Source: Escherichia coli
GTDB lineage: Bacteria; Pseudomonadota; Gammaproteobacteria; Enterobacterales; Enterobacteriaceae
Length of the DNA: 64,000 bases
Strand: one strand, 5' to 3'
Assembly (NCBI RefSeq): GCF_024502345.1
Contig: NZ_JALDNN010000003.1
The position numbers and the translations under genes are program-made. Numbering within the stretch: the first letter of the stretch is position 1; each line of letters begins with the position of its first letter. This document shows, piece after piece, positions 6,560 through 19,091 of the stretch. The notes beneath the pieces are model-generated. The model did no database searches. It was not told where the DNA came from and was given only the letters and a program-made list of their open reading frames with translations.

Positions 6560-7012
6560 ATGTTATCACGCAACTCACTAATACACGGTTTACGTCGAGA
6601 TCAGTTAATCGAAGTTCTGTCTATTTCTGAATTCCCAGTTGTCCTGGTCGAGAATCCCTTCATTCAGCCTAAATCAACAGGCAAAAAACCAGTCATTTTT
6701 AATATTGATGAATTTCATGTTTCCATTGCCCCAATTTCATCGCTTAAGTACGACTGGGAGTGGGCTCCAATTGATACAATACTCATCGAAGTGGTCATTC
6801 CGCCTGCTGAAGCAGACCTGGTAAGCGCCGAGAATGATTTCCTTCGCGATGCAGGTATTGGCCATATTCAATGCGAGCCTGGAGGCGTTTCGATACGCCG
6901 TACAGTGACATTTGTTGGGGGGATCACCGCCGACAATTTGCTGTATCAACTCAGGCTTATGTGCGTAAGTGCTTTACACTTGATTGGAGAGGAACTGGAG
7001 GATGAAAGTTAA
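6560..7012 (+). CDS. Hypothetical protein
   Basis: 150-aa ORF, first of three co-oriented genes upstream of the large secreted protein; no motif recognised. Confidence 0.3.
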   Translation: MLSRNSLIHGLRRDQLIEVLSISEFPVVLVENPFIQPKSTGKKPVIFNIDEFHVSIAPISSLKYDWEWAPIDTILIEVVIPPAEADLVSAENDFLRDAGIGHIQCEPGGVSIRRTVTFVGGITADNLLYQLRLMCVSALHLIGEELEDES

Positions 7013-7436
7013 TTTTAAAAAGGTAATCCCCCTTTTAATGGTTGGTTTAACAGTGGCGGGGTCTTACTCGATCTTTAACGCAAAACCGTCGAAGCCTGAC
7101 TTGTACGATTTTACTGGCAAAGTTCTTAAAACCACTTCTGTTTTCCAACCTTGTGATAAAGAATCCACACCTTCGTTGAACATCCAGATAGCAGATAACG
7201 GAAGCGTACATATCAATGGCGTTGCATCAAAAGTTACTTTTGTTGAGAGAGTTCCGGGTAATGAAATTGCAGTTAAGTGTACGGGTCTGCAAGTCAAAAA
7301 TTCCCGCCTTGTGCATACGAGCTCTTACACCATGATAATTTCGGAAGGAAAAGGTGGTTTTGTTATTTCGGATTTGACGCACACGAAGGATAATGAAGTT
7401 ATGTCCGGTACATGGTTCTTTAAGAAGAGAGTATGA
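6984..7436 (+). CDS. Exported hypothetical protein
   Basis: Signal-peptide-like N-terminus (VIPLLMVGLTVAGSYSIFNA); contains one copy of the 13-bp palindrome at 7229. Confidence 0.35.
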   Translation: MERNWRMKVNFKKVIPLLMVGLTVAGSYSIFNAKPSKPDLYDFTGKVLKTTSVFQPCDKESTPSLNIQIADNGSVHINGVASKVTFVERVPGNEIAVKCTGLQVKNSRLVHTSSYTMIISEGKGGFVISDLTHTKDNEVMSGTWFFKKRV

Positions 7437-7996
7437 CAATGAGCGATCTGTCAGCAACTGGTGCGAAGCCTCAACGGGTCAGAGTATTCAGCCAATCTGT
7501 CGCGATGGCATTCGAAGTAAATCTCGACAAAAGTCGCTCTGCTGATAATTCGGCGTTTGTAACTGAGACTGAAAAGTATTACCTGTCTCTCCAGTTTGCT
7601 CCTCCGTCTGACAATAGGGAATATGGATGGAATTCAGAGGGCAGCATTCTCATGAAACTATCCCAAAACGAAGCCATGGCGCTGGCATCTGTTTTTCTGA
7701 GAATTAAGCCGACACTAAAATTTGAAAAGCGTAAGACCACGCATCGCACTCACCAAGCCTACAAAAATATCAATATCGGACCCAACGACCGTGGGGGCCT
7801 TTTGGTAAGCGCAAGCATTGTACCGGTTAAAATGGGGACGTTTAAGCCTTTAAATTATAACCTTCCCGTAACACAAATGGATTGCGTTTCAACAGGCTTG
7901 TTCTTGTTGGGGTTCCTGACACTTAAAATGCCTTGGGTATCCTCAGAATCGATAATTACCGCCCTTCGCCTATCTGAGTCTAAGAGCGGTCAGTGA
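7433..7996 (+). CDS. Hypothetical protein
   Basis: 187-aa ORF overlapping the previous stop; hydrophobic C-terminus. Confidence 0.35.
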   Translation: MTMSDLSATGAKPQRVRVFSQSVAMAFEVNLDKSRSADNSAFVTETEKYYLSLQFAPPSDNREYGWNSEGSILMKLSQNEAMALASVFLRIKPTLKFEKRKTTHRTHQAYKNINIGPNDRGGLLVSASIVPVKMGTFKPLNYNLPVTQMDCVSTGLFLLGFLTLKMPWVSSESIITALRLSESKSGQ

Positions 7997-8106
7997 GCTA
8001 AAAAATCTCAATTTCCTGCAAAAATTTAATGTTTTTTTTCCTCTTTACGAACAAGATTTCAGAATTTTTTAACGTAGAGTGATTCTAATTCTGCGTAAAA
8101 AAACAG

Positions 8107-11100
8107 GTGTTCGTCATGAGAAAATCAGGTTTATGTTTAACCCTGTTGTTTTCTTTAATTGCTTCGATTAAATCGGTACAAGCTGAGGCAATTATGATTT
8201 CCGGAAAACTCCAGGCTGATATGCCTGCCGTCACGTTTAATCCCGGCCCGGGCGATTTTGTTGCATTCGTCAACAATAATACAATTACTGCTTCAGGTAC
8301 TGGCAACGCATGCAATGTGACGGTTGATGATCGTGCGACATCAAGCGTAGATAACTTGGTCTGCTTTTTTGAATGGCTTCCAAATACCTCTGGCTTTACA
8401 GCAAACGGATTCAATTTAACAGGGATACCCAATGCGGCAGGAGAACTAAAACTGCCGTATAAAATTTCTTATTTTTCTGGATCAGAAAGGCAGAAAGTAG
8501 AAGTGGTTAATGGGGAGTATACAGTTAATGCTCTTGTACCGGTTAAACCGACGATAACGGGCCTGAAATCGTCTATGAATGGAGTGGTTCAGGATGGTTA
8601 CACTCTTAAATCCTATCTTAAGGATGAAGCAATTAGGAATGTCACTGTCTCCGTAGAGCCTCGCAATTATGTGCAATATATCTCTATCGGGTCTGGATCA
8701 GCTTGCGAAGTCGAAATTGGTGGGAATGGCTGCACGATCGATGTTGGAAGCATCAAAGTAAGTGATTCGGATTTGCTGATGGGTTCACGGGAAATCACGG
8801 TCACTGCCAATTCGAAAAATAATTACTTTGCCCCTCCTGAAGCGCAGAAGCTAACGCTGACCTGGGATTACCGTCCTCCTGTTGTTGACCATACTCTCTG
8901 GAATTTCACGGATGAAGCTAAAACAATAAGTATTGGTGGACAGGAGATCTATACAGGAGCTAGAACGGTGGCCGTAGCCGTCAAAGTGCCTCAGGAAGAA
9001 ACTGAGGGTGAGTGGTGGTTACCAACCGCTATGACGCTAACGATGAATCCTGATGGGGTGTTTAAGCCGACAACAAAAGTTACTTTAGAAGATGGTACGG
9101 TTATCGACTTTAAGCAATCCTGGGCAACACCGCTACGTCGTACTCTTCAGCCCGTGAGCGGGCCACAGAAAGTCGGCGATGAATATCTGTATATCTTTGA
9201 CTTAACAGACTTGACGAATGGTTCTTATGCCGCCTCGTTCACGGTAGAGAACAATAGCAAGAATACCTCTACGTACAATGAGCCTGAAAGCAAACTGATG
9301 CTTTCTGATAACCCAACACTGATGGTGCTTAAGGACGGTGCAGCTCTGGCCAAACGAGCTCCTGTGTATTTCTTAAATGAAATTATTGTTGCCGCATTCC
9401 AGGGCCAGGCCGGAGTCGCGGATATTAAAGCTGTTACGATAGATAACAAACTTGTTGAGCTCACCCCCACGAACCACAAAGGCATTTATTATCTGCCGGT
9501 TGGGGATGATCTAGAAGTGAATGCTGACCATGAAATCACGGTCATAGCTGAAAACCTGTACGGCAAGATTGTGACATTTAATACTACTTTCACGTATCAA
9601 CCAACAGGATTCACGCTTAAAAACTTTGAGAAAGACATCACATTGTACTCACGAGTTCGGCAGTATACCGATCTCATGAGTCAGACGGCCGGTGATAAAT
9701 GCACTCTCTTTACTACAGAAGAGAACGCACTGGCATACCTTGAATGGTATGGTGACAAATCTGATATCACCGCCTGTTACCCTCAGTGGAACAATGTGCC
9801 TGACGGGCTTGAATTTTACTTTAAAGGCCGGACGCCAGGCCTGACAGGGTTCTTCAATAAAACAGGCGATAACCTGCTCGACTATCAGGTCTATATGATA
9901 AACGGCAAGGGCTCTAAAGCTGTATCGTCCAGAAACCGCCATGTGCTGATTACGCAGTTACCTTATAACCCGGTCCTTACCTACAAGAAAAACAAGGTGT
10001 TGACGGGGATTAACGATAACACCGCACTGGCGTATACCACTGGCGGGGAAGCAGCTCGTCTATTGGCAAAAGTGGTTCCTGCTGATGTGACAGTCTATGT
10101 TTCACAAAACGGGGGGGAAAGCGTAAAAACGACGTTTAAGAACCGTTCATCAAATAACGATGCAACGACGTTTGTTCAACGTCTTAAAGTGGCATCAGCC
10201 CCGTTGTGGACGAAGAATGTCTTCGACATAGCTGTCGAGTACTCGAAGGAACCGACTATGCGAACCGTTGATACGCTCAATGTGTATACGGTACCCGACT
10301 TTAACATTAGAGCGGCAATGGAAATTGAGGACAAAAAGACTGCTACCACGATGGAATTGCCATTGAAGGTGTCTGTTGGCCGCTATAACAATTCAACCCG
10401 CAAAAGTTCATTTAGTCGGACAACAATGGGGGACTGGGATGTAACCATTTACGCTCAGAAAAGTGTTTATGGAAAAGATCCAGAAACAGGCCGATATAAA
10501 ACGACGTATGAACGTACACCCCTAACCGAAGCACTGCCCGTGAATGATGCCGGGGTGGTTGAAACCAAGATCAAGATAGAAAATTTGGACCTCGGGAACG
10601 TGCGACTTGTCGGGATTGCTAAAGTACGATCGCCTTTCGCAGATTTCGAACTGACCCGGGAAACCAGTGCAGTTAGCATCCGTGTTTATAAGGGCGAAGA
10701 GCTAGAAGGTAATCTCTCAAAGAGTCTGATTATCGGACGTATCCCGCTCAGTACGCTTGTTAACTTCAAATCGGCCAGTACAGCTAACTCCGATGCGCTG
10801 GCGCCTACCGAGTGGCAGGAGTCTTCTGATAATGGACAGACATGGACTATGCTTCAGGACATGACAGGGAAGCGAAGCATTTCGATCAGGAAAACTGAGG
10901 TTGGTAAATGGCTTTACAGGGCAAAAATGACCAACAAGTTTACGTCGAAAGAGTCTTATAGCGACGTTCTGACGGTTGTAACGTACAAACAGCCTAAGCT
11001 GAGCATCGATGTTGCTGAAATTCTCGAAGGCGATGATTTGCCTGTCACGCTGCTGGATAACGATGAACCAATTCCGCAGGGTACGGCCGAAGTGATGTGG

Positions 11101-12414
11101 TCGGAGGATAAAGTGAATTGGGTTCAGGGTGACACTACCTATAACGTATCGGCCGCTGATACGCTACCTCCGACCATTTACGCCCGAATGCGTTACCTGG
11201 ATTCTGATGAGTTGGCTGAAGAGTCATCCTGGAAAGAGACGTCTGCCCGGTTAACCGTCGCTAAACCCAAGCGCCTATCTGTTTCAGTAAGTGGTATTTC
11301 AAGCGTCGAGGTGGGAAGTAAAGTTACTTTAGATGGTAAATACACTAACCCGAACAGCCGATTCAAGAACGGAAATGACGTCATTGAAGAATGGACTGCC
11401 CCTGACGGACAAAAAATCAGAGGTGCGAATCTGTCGATAACTTTGACTGAGCAGATGCTGGATAAGCAAGGATATGCGGCATTTGAATACAGTGCATGGC
11501 TTGCTGGCAGTAAGGACAGTACTATTTCCACGCGGAAAGTATCTGTTAAATCTTGGGTGTATAAGTTTCCTGAGATGAAAGTCAGTACAAAGCTTAAATA
11601 CACCATGGCCCCGTCGACCTTACATGTTGCGCTGAGCGGAATAAAAGACGGTGGCTATCCTGGGGTAACTTATTCTCGGGAATGGATCTACGATAAGGAC
11701 AATATCTCAGTTTTAAAAGATGATGGTGATACGAAAGAATTTGCAATTGCGAAGCCGGGGAAATATACGTTGGTAATCGTTTTCCGTGATAACCGTAACA
11801 ACGAACAGCGTATTGAAAATACCTTCGTAGTCGATGAGCAAACGCCCATGACTGTAGAAATGACACCGAAATTCTCTAATAAGTTCATGAGGGCGCCTCT
11901 TGATGTCACGCTAAGATCTAACATTAAACTGGCGCACTCTGCTGACAGTATTGATACTGTGACATACAAAGTAAACGGCGAGGTTGTTCCTGGTAGTAAA
12001 AACTATTGGGCTCAGTTAATTTCTGGTCTTACTGAGAAGAAATACGAAGTCACGCTGGATGTTGTCAGTAAAATGGGCCAAAGAGGTACCGCATCAGTTG
12101 ATTTTGAGGTTGTTAAAAACGCGGCTCCGCAATGTGCATTAAGCTACACAGAGTCTAATATGAGCTGGAGTTTCACAAACAAATGTATTGACACTGATGG
12201 CAAGCTGGTTCGATATGAATGGTATATCAATGATGAGCTAAGGAATGTTTTCGGCAGCACTGCGACACTGTCCAAAAACCTTAATCGTGGGAAGCAAGAT
12301 ATACGAGTTGTCGCGTATGATGATAGTGGGGATTCAGCAACTCAGCGTACGACCGTTTATGGTCCGGATGAGGGCGCGTCAAAGTCCGTAGATTCAGTTG
12401 AAACCTCGCAGTAA
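8107..12414 (+). CDS. Large (1435 aa) secreted protein, Thr/Ser/Val/Asn-rich, probably multi-domain beta-rich surface protein
   Basis: Signal peptide MRKSGLCLTLLFSLIASIKSVQA; long uninterrupted ORF; composition suggests repeated Ig-like domains; sits directly upstream of the transfer genes. Confidence 0.55.
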   Translation: MFVMRKSGLCLTLLFSLIASIKSVQAEAIMISGKLQADMPAVTFNPGPGDFVAFVNNNTITASGTGNACNVTVDDRATSSVDNLVCFFEWLPNTSGFTANGFNLTGIPNAAGELKLPYKISYFSGSERQKVEVVNGEYTVNALVPVKPTITGLKSSMNGVVQDGYTLKSYLKDEAIRNVTVSVEPRNYVQYISIGSGSACEVEIGGNGCTIDVGSIKVSDSDLLMGSREITVTANSKNNYFAPPEAQKLTLTWDYRPPVVDHTLWNFTDEAKTISIGGQEIYTGARTVAVAVKVPQEETEGEWWLPTAMTLTMNPDGVFKPTTKVTLEDGTVIDFKQSWATPLRRTLQPVSGPQKVGDEYLYIFDLTDLTNGSYAASFTVENNSKNTSTYNEPESKLMLSDNPTLMVLKDGAALAKRAPVYFLNEIIVAAFQGQAGVADIKAVTIDNKLVELTPTNHKGIYYLPVGDDLEVNADHEITVIAENLYGKIVTFNTTFTYQPTGFTLKNFEKDITLYSRVRQYTDLMSQTAGDKCTLFTTEENALAYLEWYGDKSDITACYPQWNNVPDGLEFYFKGRTPGLTGFFNKTGDNLLDYQVYMINGKGSKAVSSRNRHVLITQLPYNPVLTYKKNKVLTGINDNTALAYTTGGEAARLLAKVVPADVTVYVSQNGGESVKTTFKNRSSNNDATTFVQRLKVASAPLWTKNVFDIAVEYSKEPTMRTVDTLNVYTVPDFNIRAAMEIEDKKTATTMELPLKVSVGRYNNSTRKSSFSRTTMGDWDVTIYAQKSVYGKDPETGRYKTTYERTPLTEALPVNDAGVVETKIKIENLDLGNVRLVGIAKVRSPFADFELTRETSAVSIRVYKGEELEGNLSKSLIIGRIPLSTLVNFKSASTANSDALAPTEWQESSDNGQTWTMLQDMTGKRSISIRKTEVGKWLYRAKMTNKFTSKESYSDVLTVVTYKQPKLSIDVAEILEGDDLPVTLLDNDEPIPQGTAEVMWSEDKVNWVQGDTTYNVSAADTLPPTIYARMRYLDSDELAEESSWKETSARLTVAKPKRLSVSVSGISSVEVGSKVTLDGKYTNPNSRFKNGNDVIEEWTAPDGQKIRGANLSITLTEQMLDKQGYAAFEYSAWLAGSKDSTISTRKVSVKSWVYKFPEMKVSTKLKYTMAPSTLHVALSGIKDGGYPGVTYSREWIYDKDNISVLKDDGDTKEFAIAKPGKYTLVIVFRDNRNNEQRIENTFVVDEQTPMTVEMTPKFSNKFMRAPLDVTLRSNIKLAHSADSIDTVTYKVNGEVVPGSKNYWAQLISGLTEKKYEVTLDVVSKMGQRGTASVDFEVVKNAAPQCALSYTESNMSWSFTNKCIDTDGKLVRYEWYINDELRNVFGSTATLSKNLNRGKQDIRVVAYDDSGDSATQRTTVYGPDEGASKSVDSVETSQ

Positions 12415-12433: not shown

Positions 12434-12469
12434 AGCCGGGGCAGAAATGTCCCGGCTTTTTTGTTTTTC
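12434..12469 (+). terminator. Rho-independent terminator after the large secreted protein gene
   Basis: Stem AGCCGGG-gcagaaatgt-CCCGGCT followed by a T-run. Confidence 0.55.
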
Positions 12470-12687
12470 ACTTTTTGATGGGGTAACGTCGGGAAAGTTA
12501 CTTTACATGAGTAAGACAGCGGCCAGGACAATCACAAATCAAAGACGGAATGAAAGAAAAAAAGGCGGTAAATAATCAGAAATAGCTGGCTTTGCTGAAA
12601 TAAGGAAGTACCAAAATATGGATAATAGGTTTTAAAGTAATGTAAAAGACAGTCCATTTTGCTTTCTGATTCTGAGAGAAGTAGGTT

Positions 12688-13200
12688 ATGAGAGAATACA
12701 TACCTAAGAAGCGTGGTTTACTGAGTTTTGATTGGTACGTGCCAATAAATCTCGGAATCCTGATACTGGTTATGTTGATTTTTTTTAATCGATTTACGTT
12801 TGGTCATGGACTATTAAATGGATGTTTACCTGCTGATTTTTACATGATCGATCTGAAGGATAAATCGGTAAGGTCAGGGAATATCATAGCTTTTCATATG
12901 CCAAAATCAGTCCGTTTTATACGTGAAAATGAGAAGGTTATTAAAATTGTGGCAGGAGTCGGCGGAGATCGCCTGAGGGTCACATTGGATGGTGTTTATA
13001 ATGGGAACAAATTTTATAAAGCCAATGCCAGACGTATTTCTGTGAAATACGGCATACCTGCCGAGACCATTGAAAGAGAATTAACTATTCCGGAAGGGGA
13101 GGTCTTTTTAATTGGGCAAACGGACCACTCATGGGACTCACGTTTTTGGGGGCCGGTTAAGTTGACTTCAGTTATTGGGAAAACATATGCGATCTTTTGA
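12688..13200 (+). CDS. Conjugative transfer signal peptidase (S26 family, TraF/TrhP-like)
   Basis: N-terminal membrane anchor plus signal-peptidase-like core (IVAGVGGDRLRV ... FLIGQTDHSWDSRFWGPV); first gene of a transfer operon. Confidence 0.6.
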   Translation: MREYIPKKRGLLSFDWYVPINLGILILVMLIFFNRFTFGHGLLNGCLPADFYMIDLKDKSVRSGNIIAFHMPKSVRFIRENEKVIKIVAGVGGDRLRVTLDGVYNGNKFYKANARRISVKYGIPAETIERELTIPEGEVFLIGQTDHSWDSRFWGPVKLTSVIGKTYAIF

Positions 13201-14695
13201 ATTAAAAACAACTATTAAGCCTCTGGCCTCCTGTCTGGCATTTTACGCCTTAATATCCACCGCTGTGGCTAGCCCCCAGTATCAACAGGTTGCTGATGAC
13301 ATTGCAAGGCAAGCTCAGGTTCTGGGCGCCCAAATACCGGTACCACACGCATCAGAAGGTCCGCTCCCGTCTGGTTCTCTGGATTCTCCTGATACCAAGA
13401 AATACATCCGCCAGGCCGAAGCTATGAAGAAAAACGGGGACCTCAGTCAGCAAACAAATCGCGGTTATGTCCCGGGTATGAATGCTGACAGTGTGCAGGC
13501 AGTTATAGACCATACGCAGGCTATCCGCGCTCAGAGTAATAACTCGGAAGCAGTTAACGACATCATTCGCAGACGTGATGAGATTCAGGGAAATTCACAG
13601 CTCAGCGAGTCTGCACTGAAATCCGTCGAAAATAAACCAGAAGTTATGCGCAGTCAGTCTTCGAATATCGAAAAGATGTTTGGTTCATCAGGAATCACCG
13701 CCGCTGACTTCGAGCGTAAAATAGACAGCAGTCGGGAAGAGGTGCTCTCGACAGAAAACGGTATCACTATCTTTGCGTCATTTAGCTTGCCTGATTACGT
13801 CCTGGAAGATCTACTCCGTACCGCGTCAGAACATAAGGCGAGAGTGGTTTTTAATGGTCTGAAGAAAGGCACTACACGCCTCCCTGAAACTCAGGCAGCT
13901 ATCAACCAGCTGGTGGTGAAGGGGAAGTTTGACTCCCCACTAATTACGATTGACCCGGACGCATTTAACCAGTACCAGATCACGCAGGTCCCGACAATAA
14001 TCTCCCGTGAGCAATCCCGGTTTGCAAAAATGGTCGGCTCTTTCAACGTTGATTTCTTCCAGCGCGAACTGGCCAGAAAACCCAACCAAGATCTTTTCCC
14101 GATTGCTGGTACGACCTATCCGGTTGAAGAGAAGAGCATTATTAAAGAGCTCGAAGAGCGAGCACAGAAATACGACTGGGACGGCGCCAAGAAGAGAGCA
14201 GTCGCTGATACCTGGAAAAACCAGTACATGGTTAATCTGCCTCCCGCTCAAGAGCACAAGGAATGGCTAATCGACCCGACAATCAGGGTTACTCAGGACG
14301 TTAAAGATAAGCAGGGTCGCGTCATTGCTTCTGCTGGCGAGCTCATTAACCCACTGGCCAGGTTCCCGCAGAACCTCACAATGATAATTTTTGACCCAAT
14401 GAACCCAGGGCAACTTGAGTGGGCAGAGAAGCAATATCGCCAGCGTCTTGGCAGCGGTCAGGTGATGCCGATGTTCACGCGCATCAAACAGGAAAATGGA
14501 TGGGATCATTTGAATGATCTGCGCGAAAAATTCAATGGGAAGGTGTTCAAAGTTAATGAGCAAATTATTGCTCGTTTCCAGATAAAAAACACGCCAGCGC
14601 TGATCTCCACTGAAAAAGAGAAATTCCGTATAACGCAATTCAGTGAAGCTGAAATACGTGGTATTGGAACAAAAATCGCGGCAGAGGAGAATTGA
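13175..14695 (+). CDS. TrbC/TraW-like fusion protein (F-type pilus assembly; TrhW-like)
   Basis: 506-aa signal-peptide protein between the peptidase and TraU; the size and position match the TrbC+TraW fusion described for IncHI-type transfer regions; the start may be the ATG at 13187. Confidence 0.5.
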   Translation: MGKHMRSFELKTTIKPLASCLAFYALISTAVASPQYQQVADDIARQAQVLGAQIPVPHASEGPLPSGSLDSPDTKKYIRQAEAMKKNGDLSQQTNRGYVPGMNADSVQAVIDHTQAIRAQSNNSEAVNDIIRRRDEIQGNSQLSESALKSVENKPEVMRSQSSNIEKMFGSSGITAADFERKIDSSREEVLSTENGITIFASFSLPDYVLEDLLRTASEHKARVVFNGLKKGTTRLPETQAAINQLVVKGKFDSPLITIDPDAFNQYQITQVPTIISREQSRFAKMVGSFNVDFFQRELARKPNQDLFPIAGTTYPVEEKSIIKELEERAQKYDWDGAKKRAVADTWKNQYMVNLPPAQEHKEWLIDPTIRVTQDVKDKQGRVIASAGELINPLARFPQNLTMIIFDPMNPGQLEWAEKQYRQRLGSGQVMPMFTRIKQENGWDHLNDLREKFNGKVFKVNEQIIARFQIKNTPALISTEKEKFRITQFSEAEIRGIGTKIAAEEN

Positions 14696-14827: not shown

Positions 14828-15892
14828 GTGAGCGTGCCGGTGAAGAAGCTAAAAAAGTTACTTTTGGAAATATTGATCGCTGTCATGCTGTCGCTCTCGC
14901 TGCCTGCAATGACAATGGCCGCAGATACCGGTGTCCCGGGAGCAATGTGCCAGTCAGCGGGAGTATGGCAGGGCCTAATCAAAAACATCTGCTGGAGTTG
15001 TATCTTCCCGATGCGGATCATGGGAATTGGAGCAGCCCCTGAAGGTGCCGCCCCCTCACGCCCTGGTTGCTATTGCACGGATCAAAATGGGATACCAGAA
15101 ATCGGATGGCAGCTAAGTTTTTTCCAACCAGTAAAAATTGTTGAAGTGGTGAAAAGTCCGTGGTGCAGCCCATTTTTAGAGGGAACCATGCTGCAAAAAT
15201 CACAGTTCGACATCGGCAAGAGCAATACTAACCAGCCTATGACCGCAACAGAAGCCGGATTCTACGACGTACATCTCTGGGAATTCCCAATCATGACGAT
15301 GTTGAAATTGCTGGTTATTGGTGAATGTACAGCAGAACCTTATGTTGATGCCAGTCTGACGTATATCAGCGAAGTAGATCCGATGTGGGAAAGTGACCTA
15401 TTGACGCTCGTGCTAAACCCCGAAGCTGTGGTATTTGCAAACCCTATCGCCTCAATGGTATGTGCAGCTGACTGCGTGGCCGTGACTGCCGGGAAGGATA
15501 ATTTGGCTGCATATTTTTGTGCCGGGTGTGATGGGAACCTTTACCCGTTAACTGGACACATCTATGCGAATGATGATGCCGTCAGAACCAGCTCACTTAT
15601 AACTCAGCGTCTACTGACGAAGTTACATAGGCAGGGAATGCTTATGAGAACAATGGGAGCTGACGCAATGTGTGAAAAAACGTGGGAATACTTCACTCCT
15701 CGATCTCAATACCGACTTTCAATGCTTTACCCAACGCCGGAGGCGAATGGTCCGGATTGCTGTCATCGCCTAGGCGATTCTGTCCATGACTGGTCAACGC
15801 TTAAAGGTGGACGGAAAAAAATCGGCATAGATAACTATGTTTACATGCTGTGGCGCTATAATGATTGCTGCGTCAGGTATATACCCAACTAA
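14828..15892 (+). CDS. traU: TraU-like F-type conjugal pilus assembly protein
   Basis: Signal peptide, a CxxC-containing segment (ICWSCIFPM) and many conserved Cys, typical of the TraU family; the track's first codon is GTG. Confidence 0.7.
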   Translation: MSVPVKKLKKLLLEILIAVMLSLSLPAMTMAADTGVPGAMCQSAGVWQGLIKNICWSCIFPMRIMGIGAAPEGAAPSRPGCYCTDQNGIPEIGWQLSFFQPVKIVEVVKSPWCSPFLEGTMLQKSQFDIGKSNTNQPMTATEAGFYDVHLWEFPIMTMLKLLVIGECTAEPYVDASLTYISEVDPMWESDLLTLVLNPEAVVFANPIASMVCAADCVAVTAGKDNLAAYFCAGCDGNLYPLTGHIYANDDAVRTSSLITQRLLTKLHRQGMLMRTMGADAMCEKTWEYFTPRSQYRLSMLYPTPEANGPDCCHRLGDSVHDWSTLKGGRKKIGIDNYVYMLWRYNDCCVRYIPN

Positions 15893-15914: not shown

Positions 15915-18900
15915 ATGAAACATAGAAAAATAATTTCTTCAGCAATTATTGCGTCTATGATAGCTAATACTATGAGTTGGGCATTTTACGTGTCGCTCAT
16001 AAACATTGCGTTAACGCCTAAAATATTTGCGGCAGATGCGATTTTTGACCAGCTTGAAAACAATTTTAACCTTGCCAATCCCAACGCCAACCGGAACGCA
16101 ACCACCAGTGCTCAGGATATTGTGGAAAAGTATAAAAATGCTGATTCCGGGGAAAATCTGAGCGGCAAAATTTCCGAGAAATATGTTGGTAAAGCAGAGT
16201 CAACAAACCTAAATGTTGGGAAGTACGGGACGCCGAACTCAAATGAAAGTGTTATGAGTAATGCGGTGTCCGACGGGAAATCGATCGGTAAGGCTGTACA
16301 ATTACCTAGCATGTCGGGCGGTACAATTAACTCGAATTATACGAAAGAGGGGGCAAAGTTACTTTCTAGGGACAGCAGCGGTAATATTGGAATAAGTAAC
16401 AACCCGAATACAACGGCAGGTACCAAAACCAGTACAGGGGAATTATTCAGCTCAGAGCAGAAGCACAGTGATGTTCAGTTCAATGCTGGTGGCCGGTATG
16501 GAGATGAAAATGGCTTCATCAATGACATCAAAAATCGAAAAAGTCAGCTGTTTGAAGCGCAAAGTTATGATGGAGTCGCCTACCGTACTCTGGTGAATGC
16601 AAATAAAGAAAACCCAGCATCTACTATTAAACCTAACGACCCTATGTTCAATGCGGGTCGAAACGAAATAGGAAATGCTGTAGCTGGTACAGGAAACTGG
16701 CTACAGAATTGTAATACGGAAACATCAAAACAAACAATTACTACGCACTATCCAGATTACAAAGAGTTTTACTGCAATTCACCCAAGAAAGATAATTTTA
16801 ACAGTTGCACGATAACTCGTGATTTTTCCGTGCCGGTTTATATCTCAGGTGGTAATGGTGATATGTCCATGTGCGGAGATAATTGTGTGAGAGTCTGGTT
16901 TGGCAGAAGGGACGACAACTATTGGAACGATGGAGTCTATGACAACTCATTAACCTTAAAATTCCATCCAGATGCAAAGCTCGCAACTGCGAAAATAATT
17001 AACGCAGAGTGGGATGACCATATGAGGGTCACGCTTGATGGTACACAGATTTTTGCTCATATAGATGGAGCATATAGAAGTAGCAATTATCCATCTCCAC
17101 AAGGTCAATGGGAGTTAAAGAAATCCTGGAAGCTCGATAAAGTCTACGATATTACTGAACAAGTAAAAACCTCTGTATATCAGGAGCAGGATCGTGAAGT
17201 GACTATGGCTTCGCGCGTATGGGTTGGCGGTGGTGGGGAAGGCTATTTTGAAGTTGAGATGACTTTTGAAAATATGAAGTTGGAGGATAAACATATACAG
17301 GAGCCCGCAGGATGTTTTGATGCAGTACAAACGCCGAATTCATTCTGTCGGTTTGACAGGTTTGTCAACATGGATGTTGGTACAAAGCGACTCCCGGAAA
17401 GTGTGCTTAAGATGGCCACACCGCTTTACAAAGGTGATACAGGATACTTAACCTGGAAAACAAACCTTGAAGGCTATTTCTGTGATCCCCTGGCGAAGGA
17501 AAAACTGTGCTCTTATGATGCGAAGGGAAACATCATGAAAGACCCCACAGGCAAAGACCTTTGCTACAACTACGACGATATAAAAAATATGCCTGACGCA
17601 TGCAGCACATATAAAAATGATGCTGCGTGTGTGCTAGATAATCAGACATGTGCTGAAGGTTGGTTCGATGAAGGCACAAATACTTGCTACATGTATGAGC
17701 AGAAATATACATGTGACAGAGGGAAAGACGTAGTCAGAGAGGTAGAGTCACAGACTAACTCCTGTGTAGGTATGATCCCATGTTCTGGCGGAACATGTGA
17801 AACAGGCCCAAAAGAAGAAAACAAAGATTTTGGGAAAGTGGCCGCGTACTCCAATATGGTTCAGTACATGCAAGGTGAAGCAAAATGCGAAGATCCAAAC
17901 GACCCTAACTCCTGCTCTGTCTTTGAAGGGAAAGCAGAGTGGTGCGGCAGGTCCGTTGGTTTTGTGAACGGACTGGCCAAAACAGATTGCTGCGAAAAGC
18001 CGCAGGGTGCTGCTGGGTCACTGGAGGCGATAATGCTGGCCGGGTCGATGATCCGAAACACGAACTGGACCCGAGTGAATGCTCAACTGGTAAACTGGAC
18101 TGGAGGGGAGAGCGGAACCTGGGCATCAATGGCTAACTCAGTGGGTGAATGGACTGCATCGGCAGGTAAAACTGTCGGACAAATGTGGAACAATGTGACC
18201 AGTTCAATAACCAGCGTTTACGAAAACGTGGCCGGTAACCTTGGCCGAACAGTAGGATCATCCGCTGCTGGTGAAAGTGGTCAGCTTGCTAAGGAGACTA
18301 TGAGTTCATTCGGGCTTGGTAAACTTAAGCAGATGGCCATGGAAAAAGCCTATGACCTGCTTCCCGATACAGTTAGAGACTTCGTATTTAAAAATGTAGC
18401 GACAACGGGGGGAGAAATAGTCTTTTCTGCTGCTGTTCAAAACTTTATGCTTGCATTAAATGTAATCGGCTGGATTTATACGGCATATCAAGTCACAAAA
18501 ATGCTGCTTGAAATGCTGGTGGCCTGCGATCAAAAAGAAATGGAAGCATCTATTCACAAAAATCAGAAATCCTGTTTTACACTGGATACAAACCGTTGTG
18601 TTAAATATCTGAATCTGGGATTTACAAAGAAATGTGTTAAAAAAGCAACAGACATGTGCTGTTACAATTCAATGTTATCTCGCGTTATTATGCAGCAGGC
18701 CTACCCGCAGCTTGGAATAGACCCGGTTACTTCAAACTGCGTTGGCTTATCAATAGGGCAGATCCAAAAGTTAGATTTTGACAAGATTGATTTAACAGAA
18801 TGGATTAACGATGCTGTTCAGGTCGGAGAAGTACCGGACCAGTACGCTACATTCTCAGAATCGTCAATAACAGCAAATTTGCCATTTAAAAACGAGAATT

Positions 18901-19091
18901 ATCAACTTCCATCAGAAAGAACAAAAGATGCAATGGGAGGAGAGGAGAATATGATAAAAGCCAGACAGGAAAACGCTCAGGCCATTAAAGAGGAGAACGT
19001 AGACTGTAGCTATCTTCCACGCCCTGCGATTTGTGAAGTTGGGTCAACTTATGTAGATCCAATTACAGGTAAGGAAATACCAAAATATTAA
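15915..19091 (+). CDS. traN: TraN-like mating-pair stabilisation protein (Cys-rich outer membrane protein)
   Basis: 1058-aa secreted protein with dense Cys clusters in the central and C-terminal regions, immediately downstream of traU as in F-type systems. Confidence 0.6.
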   Translation: MKHRKIISSAIIASMIANTMSWAFYVSLINIALTPKIFAADAIFDQLENNFNLANPNANRNATTSAQDIVEKYKNADSGENLSGKISEKYVGKAESTNLNVGKYGTPNSNESVMSNAVSDGKSIGKAVQLPSMSGGTINSNYTKEGAKLLSRDSSGNIGISNNPNTTAGTKTSTGELFSSEQKHSDVQFNAGGRYGDENGFINDIKNRKSQLFEAQSYDGVAYRTLVNANKENPASTIKPNDPMFNAGRNEIGNAVAGTGNWLQNCNTETSKQTITTHYPDYKEFYCNSPKKDNFNSCTITRDFSVPVYISGGNGDMSMCGDNCVRVWFGRRDDNYWNDGVYDNSLTLKFHPDAKLATAKIINAEWDDHMRVTLDGTQIFAHIDGAYRSSNYPSPQGQWELKKSWKLDKVYDITEQVKTSVYQEQDREVTMASRVWVGGGGEGYFEVEMTFENMKLEDKHIQEPAGCFDAVQTPNSFCRFDRFVNMDVGTKRLPESVLKMATPLYKGDTGYLTWKTNLEGYFCDPLAKEKLCSYDAKGNIMKDPTGKDLCYNYDDIKNMPDACSTYKNDAACVLDNQTCAEGWFDEGTNTCYMYEQKYTCDRGKDVVREVESQTNSCVGMIPCSGGTCETGPKEENKDFGKVAAYSNMVQYMQGEAKCEDPNDPNSCSVFEGKAEWCGRSVGFVNGLAKTDCCEKPQGAAGSLEAIMLAGSMIRNTNWTRVNAQLVNWTGGESGTWASMANSVGEWTASAGKTVGQMWNNVTSSITSVYENVAGNLGRTVGSSAAGESGQLAKETMSSFGLGKLKQMAMEKAYDLLPDTVRDFVFKNVATTGGEIVFSAAVQNFMLALNVIGWIYTAYQVTKMLLEMLVACDQKEMEASIHKNQKSCFTLDTNRCVKYLNLGFTKKCVKKATDMCCYNSMLSRVIMQQAYPQLGIDPVTSNCVGLSIGQIQKLDFDKIDLTEWINDAVQVGEVPDQYATFSESSITANLPFKNENYQLPSERTKDAMGGEENMIKARQENAQAIKEENVDCSYLPRPAICEVGSTYVDPITGKEIPKY

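Follow-up and report, generated by a model that had tools for sequence, protein, structure and literature searches.

The large secreted protein encoded ahead of the mating-pair genes is RSP of IncHI1 plasmids, probably a Sec-exported rod of Ig-like domains

What is the very large protein encoded directly ahead of the mating-pair genes of a conjugative plasmid, how would it reach the cell surface, and is it peculiar to one plasmid type? The locus that raises this question lies in a 64,000-nucleotide stretch of Escherichia coli DNA (contig NZ_JALDNN010000003.1), referred to here as the window, whose list of open reading frames (ORFs) holds an uninterrupted plus-strand frame at 8107-12414, as an initial annotation of the sequence had described. 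The answer that we consider highly probable is that this is the rsp gene of an IncHI1 plasmid and that its product is a Sec-exported rod of tandem immunoglobulin (Ig)-like domains, coating pili and flagella and acting as a mating adhesin. The gene is not new; it has already been named, annotated, and experimentally characterized, and recognizing rsp here matters for annotation rather than discovery.

A megablast search against PLSDB gave 219 plasmid records matching the 4308 bases of the frame at an identity of at least 99%, and the best-ranked rows were each 100% identical. A further 62 records matched rsp at 80 to 90%, making 281 records that hold at least 80% of the gene. The plasmids with rsp were nearly all conjugative, and two records that were opened showed MOBH/MPF_F typing and the feature "rsp: IncHI-type conjugal transfer protein RSP." The RefSeq annotation of the identical DNA likewise names the gene rsp (WP_001232104.1). 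The protein from the window is identical to RSP of plasmid R27 at 1428 of 1432 amino acids (99.7%), with four substitutions, and the Big3 immunogen printed in PMC6764697 was matched exactly over all 124 residues from amino acid 357. Judged by the DNA identity, the identity to the R27 protein, and the exact immunogen string, the window is from an IncHI1 plasmid and the gene is rsp (R27 ORF R0009). The gene, its position, its Big_3 domain, and its immunogen are thus those of the R27 RSP described by Huttener et al. (2019, 2022) and Prieto et al. (2024). The placement is that of the Tra2 region of R27, after the htd genes and before trhF-trhW-trhU-trhN, and the position between small genes (6560-7996) and the trhF-trhW-trhU-trhN genes, read initially from sequence, matches the RefSeq annotation. 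There is a practically negligible chance that this long ORF is an artifact of sequencing or assembly or that it is a decaying pseudogene. Nothing hints at it except occasional copies disrupted by an insertion sequence (IS), and against it stand the 281 records with a near-full-length gene, homologs that keep a length of 1390 to 1450 amino acids down to 26% identity, fold predictions that are confident throughout, and detection of the protein by SDS-PAGE and liquid chromatography-tandem mass spectrometry (PMC6764697). The possibility of a fused or frameshifted product had been raised by the initial annotation, and the gene came through that check.

Where does the protein begin? The initial annotation had counted 1435 amino acids from a GTG at 8107, which has to be corrected. 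Translation starts at the ATG at 8116 and yields 1432 amino acids, because the GTG at 8107 lies inside a Shine-Dalgarno-like AGGTG (8104..8108, plus strand) located 7 nucleotides before that ATG, because RefSeq also starts the gene at 8116, and because the N termini of homologs are conserved; the GTG is part of the Shine-Dalgarno sequence. The rsp coding sequence accordingly occupies 8116..12414 on the plus strand (1432 codons and a stop). Its first 23 codons (8116..8184, plus strand) encode a predicted Sec signal peptide, MRKSGLCLTLLFSLIASIKSVQA, cut before EA, as indicated by hydropathy and an A-x-A-type site. The basic n-region MRK is followed by the hydrophobic core LCLTLLFSLIA and the site V-Q-A before E-A, so that the mature protein would begin EAIMISG; the signal peptide proposed initially is borne out in each of these parts. 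Hydropathy of the whole protein gave no second hydrophobic segment. In every full-length homolog, a signal-peptide-like N terminus precedes a conserved E[AS]IM[IV]SG at the start of the mature protein.

The published model of RSP appears to begin further downstream. The reported Big3 position (331-470) and mass (155.4 kDa) fit a protein that starts at Met27 (1406 amino acids, 155.49 kDa), a model that leaves out the signal peptide, whereas the start backed by RefSeq and by the homologs lies 26 codons upstream and adds a Sec signal peptide. The Paraglaciecola homologs have no methionine at the Met27 position. A full-text search of PMC6764697 and PMC11268884 found no mention of a signal peptide in RSP. 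With the true N terminus carrying a signal peptide, both the export model and the constructs used for expression should change.

What kind of protein follows the signal peptide? The composition is as the initial annotation had stated, rich in threonine (10.0%), valine (8.8%), serine (7.9%), and asparagine (6.1%), and mature RSP is about 156 kDa and almost wholly beta-strand. With an alignment of 10 family sequences as input, AlphaFold2 models were made separately for the protein halves at amino acids 24-730 and 705-1432. The mean predicted local distance difference test scores were 87.3 and 82.4, respectively, and both halves were all-beta. Grouping of the strands in these models suggests about 13 tandem Ig-like or PKD-like beta-sandwich domains, at approximate amino acid positions 38-140, 147-251, 256-353, 356-497, and 498-614 (sandwiches 1 to 5), 620-726, 731-837, 847-957, and 962-1045 (sandwiches 6 to 9), and 1055-1146, 1155-1240, 1246-1333, and 1339-1415 (sandwiches 10 to 13). 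Sequence profiles recognize just two of the approximately 13. The fourth sandwich is a Big_3_3 domain (bacterial Ig-like group 3; Pfam PF13750, E = 3e-4; amino acids 356-497, 9181..9606, plus strand), detected in 10 of 10 family members at E<=0.1 and equivalent to the "Big 3" domain of PMC6764697. The last is a PKD-like sandwich at about amino acids 1332-1413 (12109..12354, plus strand) that includes Cys1340 and Cys1357; here the family profile matches the PKD domains of proteases and collagenases in the PDB (4l9d, E = 1e-6), and the Pfam PKD match is weak. Pfam scans of the two protein halves gave only Big_3_3 and this weak PKD, and NCBIfam and PHROGs scans assigned no family to RSP or to its small neighbors. 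Against the PDB, the profile of the N-terminal half had no match, and that of the C-terminal half matched PKD/FN3-like modules only. Foldseek searches of the PDB returned only arrays of tandem Ig, FN3, cadherin, or MG (macroglobulin) domains, the neck of the GhpA grappling hook, and the S-layer protein EA1, in agreement, as are the AlphaFold2 models, with the early guess of a multi-Ig-like protein. The models and profile scans contained no enzymatic domain. The domain map can guide a search for the parts that bind pili and flagella.

Rods of tandem bacterial Ig-like domains are also formed by SiiE of Salmonella, a type I secretion system (T1SS) substrate, and by SraP of Staphylococcus aureus, and Phyre2 had matched the C terminus of RSP to both (PMC6764697). 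SiiE, however, carries 53 nearly identical BIg repeats and its T1SS signal at the C terminus, and it lacks a signal peptide at the N terminus. The approximately 13 domains of RSP differ too much from one another for Pfam to pick out more than two of them, a Sec signal peptide is predicted, and release depends on the type IV secretion system (T4SS), so that RSP lacks the marks of a T1SS adhesin.

No recognized surface anchor (autotransporter or intimin beta-barrel, LPXTG, lipobox, or transmembrane helix) was found in RSP: hydropathy showed no hydrophobic segment other than the signal peptide, Cys7 is outside a lipobox context, the models contained no barrel, and the Pfam scans no anchor domain. 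This bears on the suggestion, made in the initial annotation, that the protein is an entry- or surface-exclusion determinant, to which we give hardly any credence. Nothing beyond surface exposure and the position in the transfer region speaks for such a role, and against it, the phenotype of an rsp deletion is a loss of donor ability that is complemented in trans (PMC6764697). The lack of a membrane anchor also counts against it, as does the attribution of R27 exclusion to other genes (EexA/EexB).

The function of RSP is best known from R27. The secretome of Salmonella with that plasmid contained the protein, and deletion of rsp made transfer undetectable in liquid (<3e-7) and left it low on filters (PMC6764697). 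Transcription of rsp is >40-fold higher at 25 than at 37°C (PMC6764697, PMC8730810, PMC11268884). RSP decorates flagella and the conjugative H-pili and lowers motility (PMC6764697, PMC8730810), and it co-precipitates RSP2 and TrhH (PMC8730810). The idea that the protein is a surface adhesin or a pilus-associated aid to mating agrees with this literature (PMC6764697, PMC8730810); the domain search, the liquid and solid matings of a deletion mutant, and the localization proposed along with it were already published, and their outcomes agreed with what had been guessed, exclusion excepted. The H-pilus cryo-electron microscopy paper and the TraN paper make no mention of RSP. IncHI plasmids disseminate resistance to multiple drugs, to colistin, and to tigecycline, and RSP is surface exposed and essential for their transfer; anti-RSP antibodies and nanobodies have been explored against IncHI-borne resistance (PMC6764697, PMC11268884).

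Since RSP binds flagella, breaks their filaments, and lowers motility (PMC6764697), it might be mainly an antimotility factor that jams flagella, the effect on conjugation being a by-product of slower swimming. In the same work, deletion of flgE partly rescued filter transfer of the rsp-deleted plasmid (PMC6764697). We nevertheless hold this explanation to be very unlikely. Nonflagellated flgE donors still need RSP in liquid, and flagella therefore cannot be its essential target (PMC6764697). In addition, RSP attaches to the conjugative pilus and is co-precipitated with TrhH (PMC8730810), and the linkage of rsp to trhF-W-U-N is close and old across diverse hosts, as described below.

Natural knockouts of rsp were seen in PLSDB. 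The copy in NZ_CP029947.1 is split by an ISVsa5 insertion, and that in NZ_AP027830.1 is reduced to its last 65%. Truncation of rsp by IS26 has also been reported in field plasmids (PMC12115866). Plasmids with a disrupted rsp should be transfer deficient unless helped.

How would a protein of this size get out of the cell? For RSP to be released, the cell needs TrhC, an ATPase of the VirB4 type, together with TrhH and the pilin TrhA (PMC6764697, PMC8730810), and RSP is present in the cytoplasmic, inner-membrane, and periplasmic fractions as well as in the supernatant (PMC6764697). Cysteines at four pairs of positions (66/83, 197/206, 529/554, and 1340/1357) do not vary among homologs down to 24 to 29% identity, and the products of R27 include the disulfide isomerase HtdT, a member of the DsbA family, and proteins with a thioredoxin fold. 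The predicted signal peptide, the invariant cysteine pairs, the disulfide enzymes of the plasmid, and the published periplasmic pool together favor export in two steps, first by Sec and then by a pilus- or T4SS-dependent exit, over recruitment from the cytoplasm. In such a scheme, RSP would cross the inner membrane via Sec, with its signal peptide cut after Ala23, and would fold and form disulfides in the periplasm, the plasmid supplying DsbC/DsbA-like enzymes. It would then reach the surface with, or through, the growing H-pilus machinery, and as a long, flexible rod it might coat pili and flagella. At the surface, it would serve as an adhesin that aids mating aggregation and stabilizes pili, rather than as a cytoplasmic T4SS "effector."

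The alternative is a single step, in which RSP is recruited in the cytoplasm and takes the route of a relaxase or an effector through the conjugation channel; the published phrase "exported by the T4SS" can be understood in this sense. The dependence of release on TrhC, TrhH, and TrhA (PMC6764697, PMC8730810) is in its favor, and an SSPred prediction in the RSP papers pointed to a T4SS route, but that prediction was based on a gene model without the signal peptide. A Sec signal peptide is predicted across the whole family, whereas T4SS substrates recruited in the cytoplasm lack one and are recognized by the coupling protein; moreover, a periplasmic pool of RSP was seen experimentally (PMC6764697), and the four invariant cysteine pairs fit oxidative folding in the periplasm. 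We consider the single-step route very unlikely. The two-step route inferred for RSP has a likeness, in its workings only, to that of pertussis toxin and Ptl, where a Sec signal peptide and periplasmic disulfide folding likewise precede exit by a T4SS, although the proteins are unrelated and Ptl has no pilus and transfers no DNA.

Several points weigh against the picture of a Sec-exported, tandem Ig-like rod. Signal peptide cleavage and disulfide formation are predictions, and the published fractionation detected RSP also in fractions called "cytoplasm" and "inner membrane," with none in the outer membrane (PMC6764697). Release might depend on trhC, trhH, and trhA in an indirect way, as it would if without pili there were no carrier to take RSP off the cell. 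Finally, the count of about 13 domains was obtained by grouping the strands of two models, each covering half of the protein.

Is RSP confined to IncHI plasmids, as has been stated (PMC8730810)? A word-indexed search found full-length relatives at 92 to 49% identity, those with names being from Salmonella, Photorhabdus, and Yersinia intermedia, and others at 26 to 27% identity in a Paraglaciecola metagenome-assembled genome (MAG) and in Shewanella. A profile of the N-terminal half was also searched against 1.84 billion cluster representatives, giving 326 proteins at E<=0.001 and 94 at E<=1e-30. About 60 of the matches were end to end over approximately 1400 amino acids, with the match beginning at residue 23 to 34, just past the signal peptide. 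The named members were from Neiella, Alteromonas, Vibrio, Photobacterium, and Shewanella, those from Vibrio and Photobacterium being known by sequence only.

Eight loci with rsp homologs were fetched, and seven had downstream DNA (the eighth, L011, stops just after the gene). In six of the seven, the rsp homolog lies directly before genes for an S26 peptidase, TrbC, TraU, and TraN; in the Alteromonas locus, approximately 5 kb of inserted cargo separates it from the same set. The loci from the Paraglaciecola MAG, Shewanella, Neiella, and Alteromonas have the same trhF-W-U-N order after the rsp homolog, and the linkage of rsp to the mating-pair genes held at 26 to 60% identity. Where the loci were long enough, a reverse-strand gene of about 288 amino acids and a UvrD-type helicase (TrhI) came next. 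Because full-length relatives with the same synteny occur in diverse hosts, RSP is an old partner of this F-like branch of mating apparatus and not a peculiarity of IncHI plasmids.

Some members of the family are longer, at 1900 to 2800 amino acids, with an extra 500 to 1600 amino acids or so at the N terminus before the conserved RSP body. The Shewanella protein P0020 (plasmid CP033574.1, L004 7025-14509) has an N-terminal extension of about 1100 amino acids, and P0025-P0028, P0033, P0042, and P0062 are other long members. A set of metagenomic proteins of about 1830 amino acids (P0086-P0170, one from a Desulfobacca MAG) was also considered and set aside; they share only RSP domains 5 and 6 (amino acids ~500-730) and are apparently a separate family.

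How does RSP compare with other large Ig-like products of plasmids? The nearest is RSP2 (R27 ORF R0055; 794 amino acids; Big_1, Big_3, and DUF4165), likewise a secreted, trhC-dependent Ig-like protein of a plasmid. Like RSP, it binds flagella and pili and promotes conjugation, and it interacts with RSP. Unlike RSP, it is shorter, occurs in IncHI1 and not IncHI2 plasmids, and is encoded between Tra2 and Tra1; a homolog occurs in some IncN plasmids. The window holds no ORF of RSP2 size (794 amino acids). In R27, three more "Ig-like domain-containing" proteins are encoded between Tra2 and Tra1 (48925-51084, 55629-56225, and 57498-59882). RSP2 is the one of 794 amino acids; the RSP papers say nothing of the remaining two, of which one is overlapped by a neighboring IS30 gene. 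The Big protein of IncA/C plasmids (ALG87338.1, pKAZ3) and the Big proteins of IncP-2 plasmids are, like RSP, large Ig-like products of tra regions; at 25°C, conjugation of the IncA/C plasmids, which are of the MOBH type, requires their Big protein. Published work groups these proteins with RSP by domain annotation, not by sequence similarity. Their genes, unlike rsp, map elsewhere (between dsbC and traL), and none of them was among the nameable matches to the RSP profile.

A second feature of the locus is a palindrome. The initial annotation had placed three copies of a 13-bp palindrome within the coding sequence. Two are there, at 9076..9086, reading in frame as K-V-T-L at amino acids 321-324, and at 11320..11330, again K-V-T-L, at amino acids 1069-1072; the third (12494..12504) lies instead in the spacer between rsp and trhF, 80 nucleotides past the rsp stop. 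The core is the 11-bp palindrome AAAGTNACTTT, with 15 copies in the window versus 0.12 expected (at 1957, 7230, 9076, 11320, 12494, 14854, 16355, 21367, 22048, 28511, 32266, 35856, 40563, 40700, and 53968). R27 holds 46 copies in 180,461 bp versus 0.23 expected, an approximately 200-fold excess and about one copy per 4 kb, while neither Tn10 nor the tcu/ISNCY island has any. The R27 sites give S-A-AAAGT-W-ACTTT-T-S as an extended consensus, and the form proposed as a DNA bait is GAAAAGTWACTTTTC.

Could the palindrome be a by-product of a protein motif? That idea was rejected: 12 of the 15 window copies are inside ORFs, their reading frames differ, others are in spacers, and few one-mismatch variants occur (4 in the window, with 3.3 expected, versus the 15 exact copies), none of them in the rsp coding sequence. 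RSP has only two KVTL motifs, and both are written in palindromic codons, for which the chance is about 0.0017 from the codon usage of the gene itself; by this count, the rsp palindromes are maintained by synonymous-codon choice. In L005, a diverged IncHI plasmid, the copy at 9076 recurs at the same nucleotide offset (960), with its center changed from T to A and the palindrome kept, and it is also at offset 960 in L007, whose RSP is 50% identical. The copy at 11320 is conserved at offset 3204/3207 in L005 and L006, and the spacer copy at 12494 is conserved in L005 even though the flanks differ. Over the Tra2 segment, all seven palindrome positions (7/7) are shared with an IncHI plasmid that is 86% identical there, including one site where the center base has changed and the flanks have diverged. 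IncHI-like elements with RSP proteins 60% and 50% identical have 7 and 6 sites per 24 kb, respectively, versus ~0.05 expected, the two rsp positions among them. The palindrome was absent from the marine relatives L002-L004. A full-text search with exact and degenerate spellings found no paper on the palindrome in IncHI plasmids.

In this pattern the palindrome behaves like the target of a protein that binds DNA as a dimer at sites throughout the plasmid, and it is probably an array of protein-binding sites. The window encodes a ParB-family protein (1-1008, 335 amino acids) that resembles the DNA-binding domains of P1 ParB (1zx4, E = 4e-17) and the Shigella antisilencer VirB (3vwb, E = 2.5e-6); a KorB-like identity was considered, and the sequence gave it no support, the resemblance being to P1 ParB and VirB instead. 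As a guess, this ParB is a candidate binder either of the dispersed palindrome or of a conventional centromere. A bolder proposal joins the two subjects: the palindromes would serve an undescribed array protein comparable to KorB, Noc, MatP, or VirB, and RSP would be a conserved accessory adhesin, Sec-exported and loaded onto the pilus, in an entire lineage of T4SSs extending to marine Vibrionales and Alteromonadales. We put this forward tentatively, as a possibility that we would not yet bet on. The palindrome is a separate and possibly new lead on the organization or regulation of these large plasmids.

The neighbors of rsp are annotated from the identical DNA, and all are on the plus strand. 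Upstream are three small genes at 6560-7012, 7002-7436, and 7433-7996, called a "transfer repressor" and two "plasmid transfer proteins" by RefSeq, which we take to be htdA, htdF, and htdK of R27. Downstream are trhF (12688-13200, S26 peptidase-like), trhW (13187-14695, TrbC/TraW), trhU (14840-15892), and trhN (15915-19091). In the spacer after rsp, 20 nucleotides past the stop, an intrinsic-terminator-like hairpin (12434..12467, plus strand) has a 10-bp stem with 7 G-C pairs, followed by a T-run. Because this hairpin is directly 3' of the gene, it suggests that rsp is transcribed more heavily than trhF-trhN downstream. A comparable G+C-rich hairpin and T-run, of other sequence, lies 3' of the rsp homolog in L002, L004, L005, L006, and L007. 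Counting against this suggestion, the published map of an "AN operon" running from htdA to trhN implies read-through of the hairpin.

The far end of the window is of another character. The G+C content climbs from ~0.42 to 0.50-0.60 over ~38000-64000, and the best matches of 40001-64000 are to accessory DNA common to thousands of unrelated plasmids, with genes for a Mu-type transposase, an ABC transporter permease, a serine ammonia-lyase, and an integrase. The segment of ~38000-64000 looks like a cargo island, with few or no palindrome copies past 54 kb.

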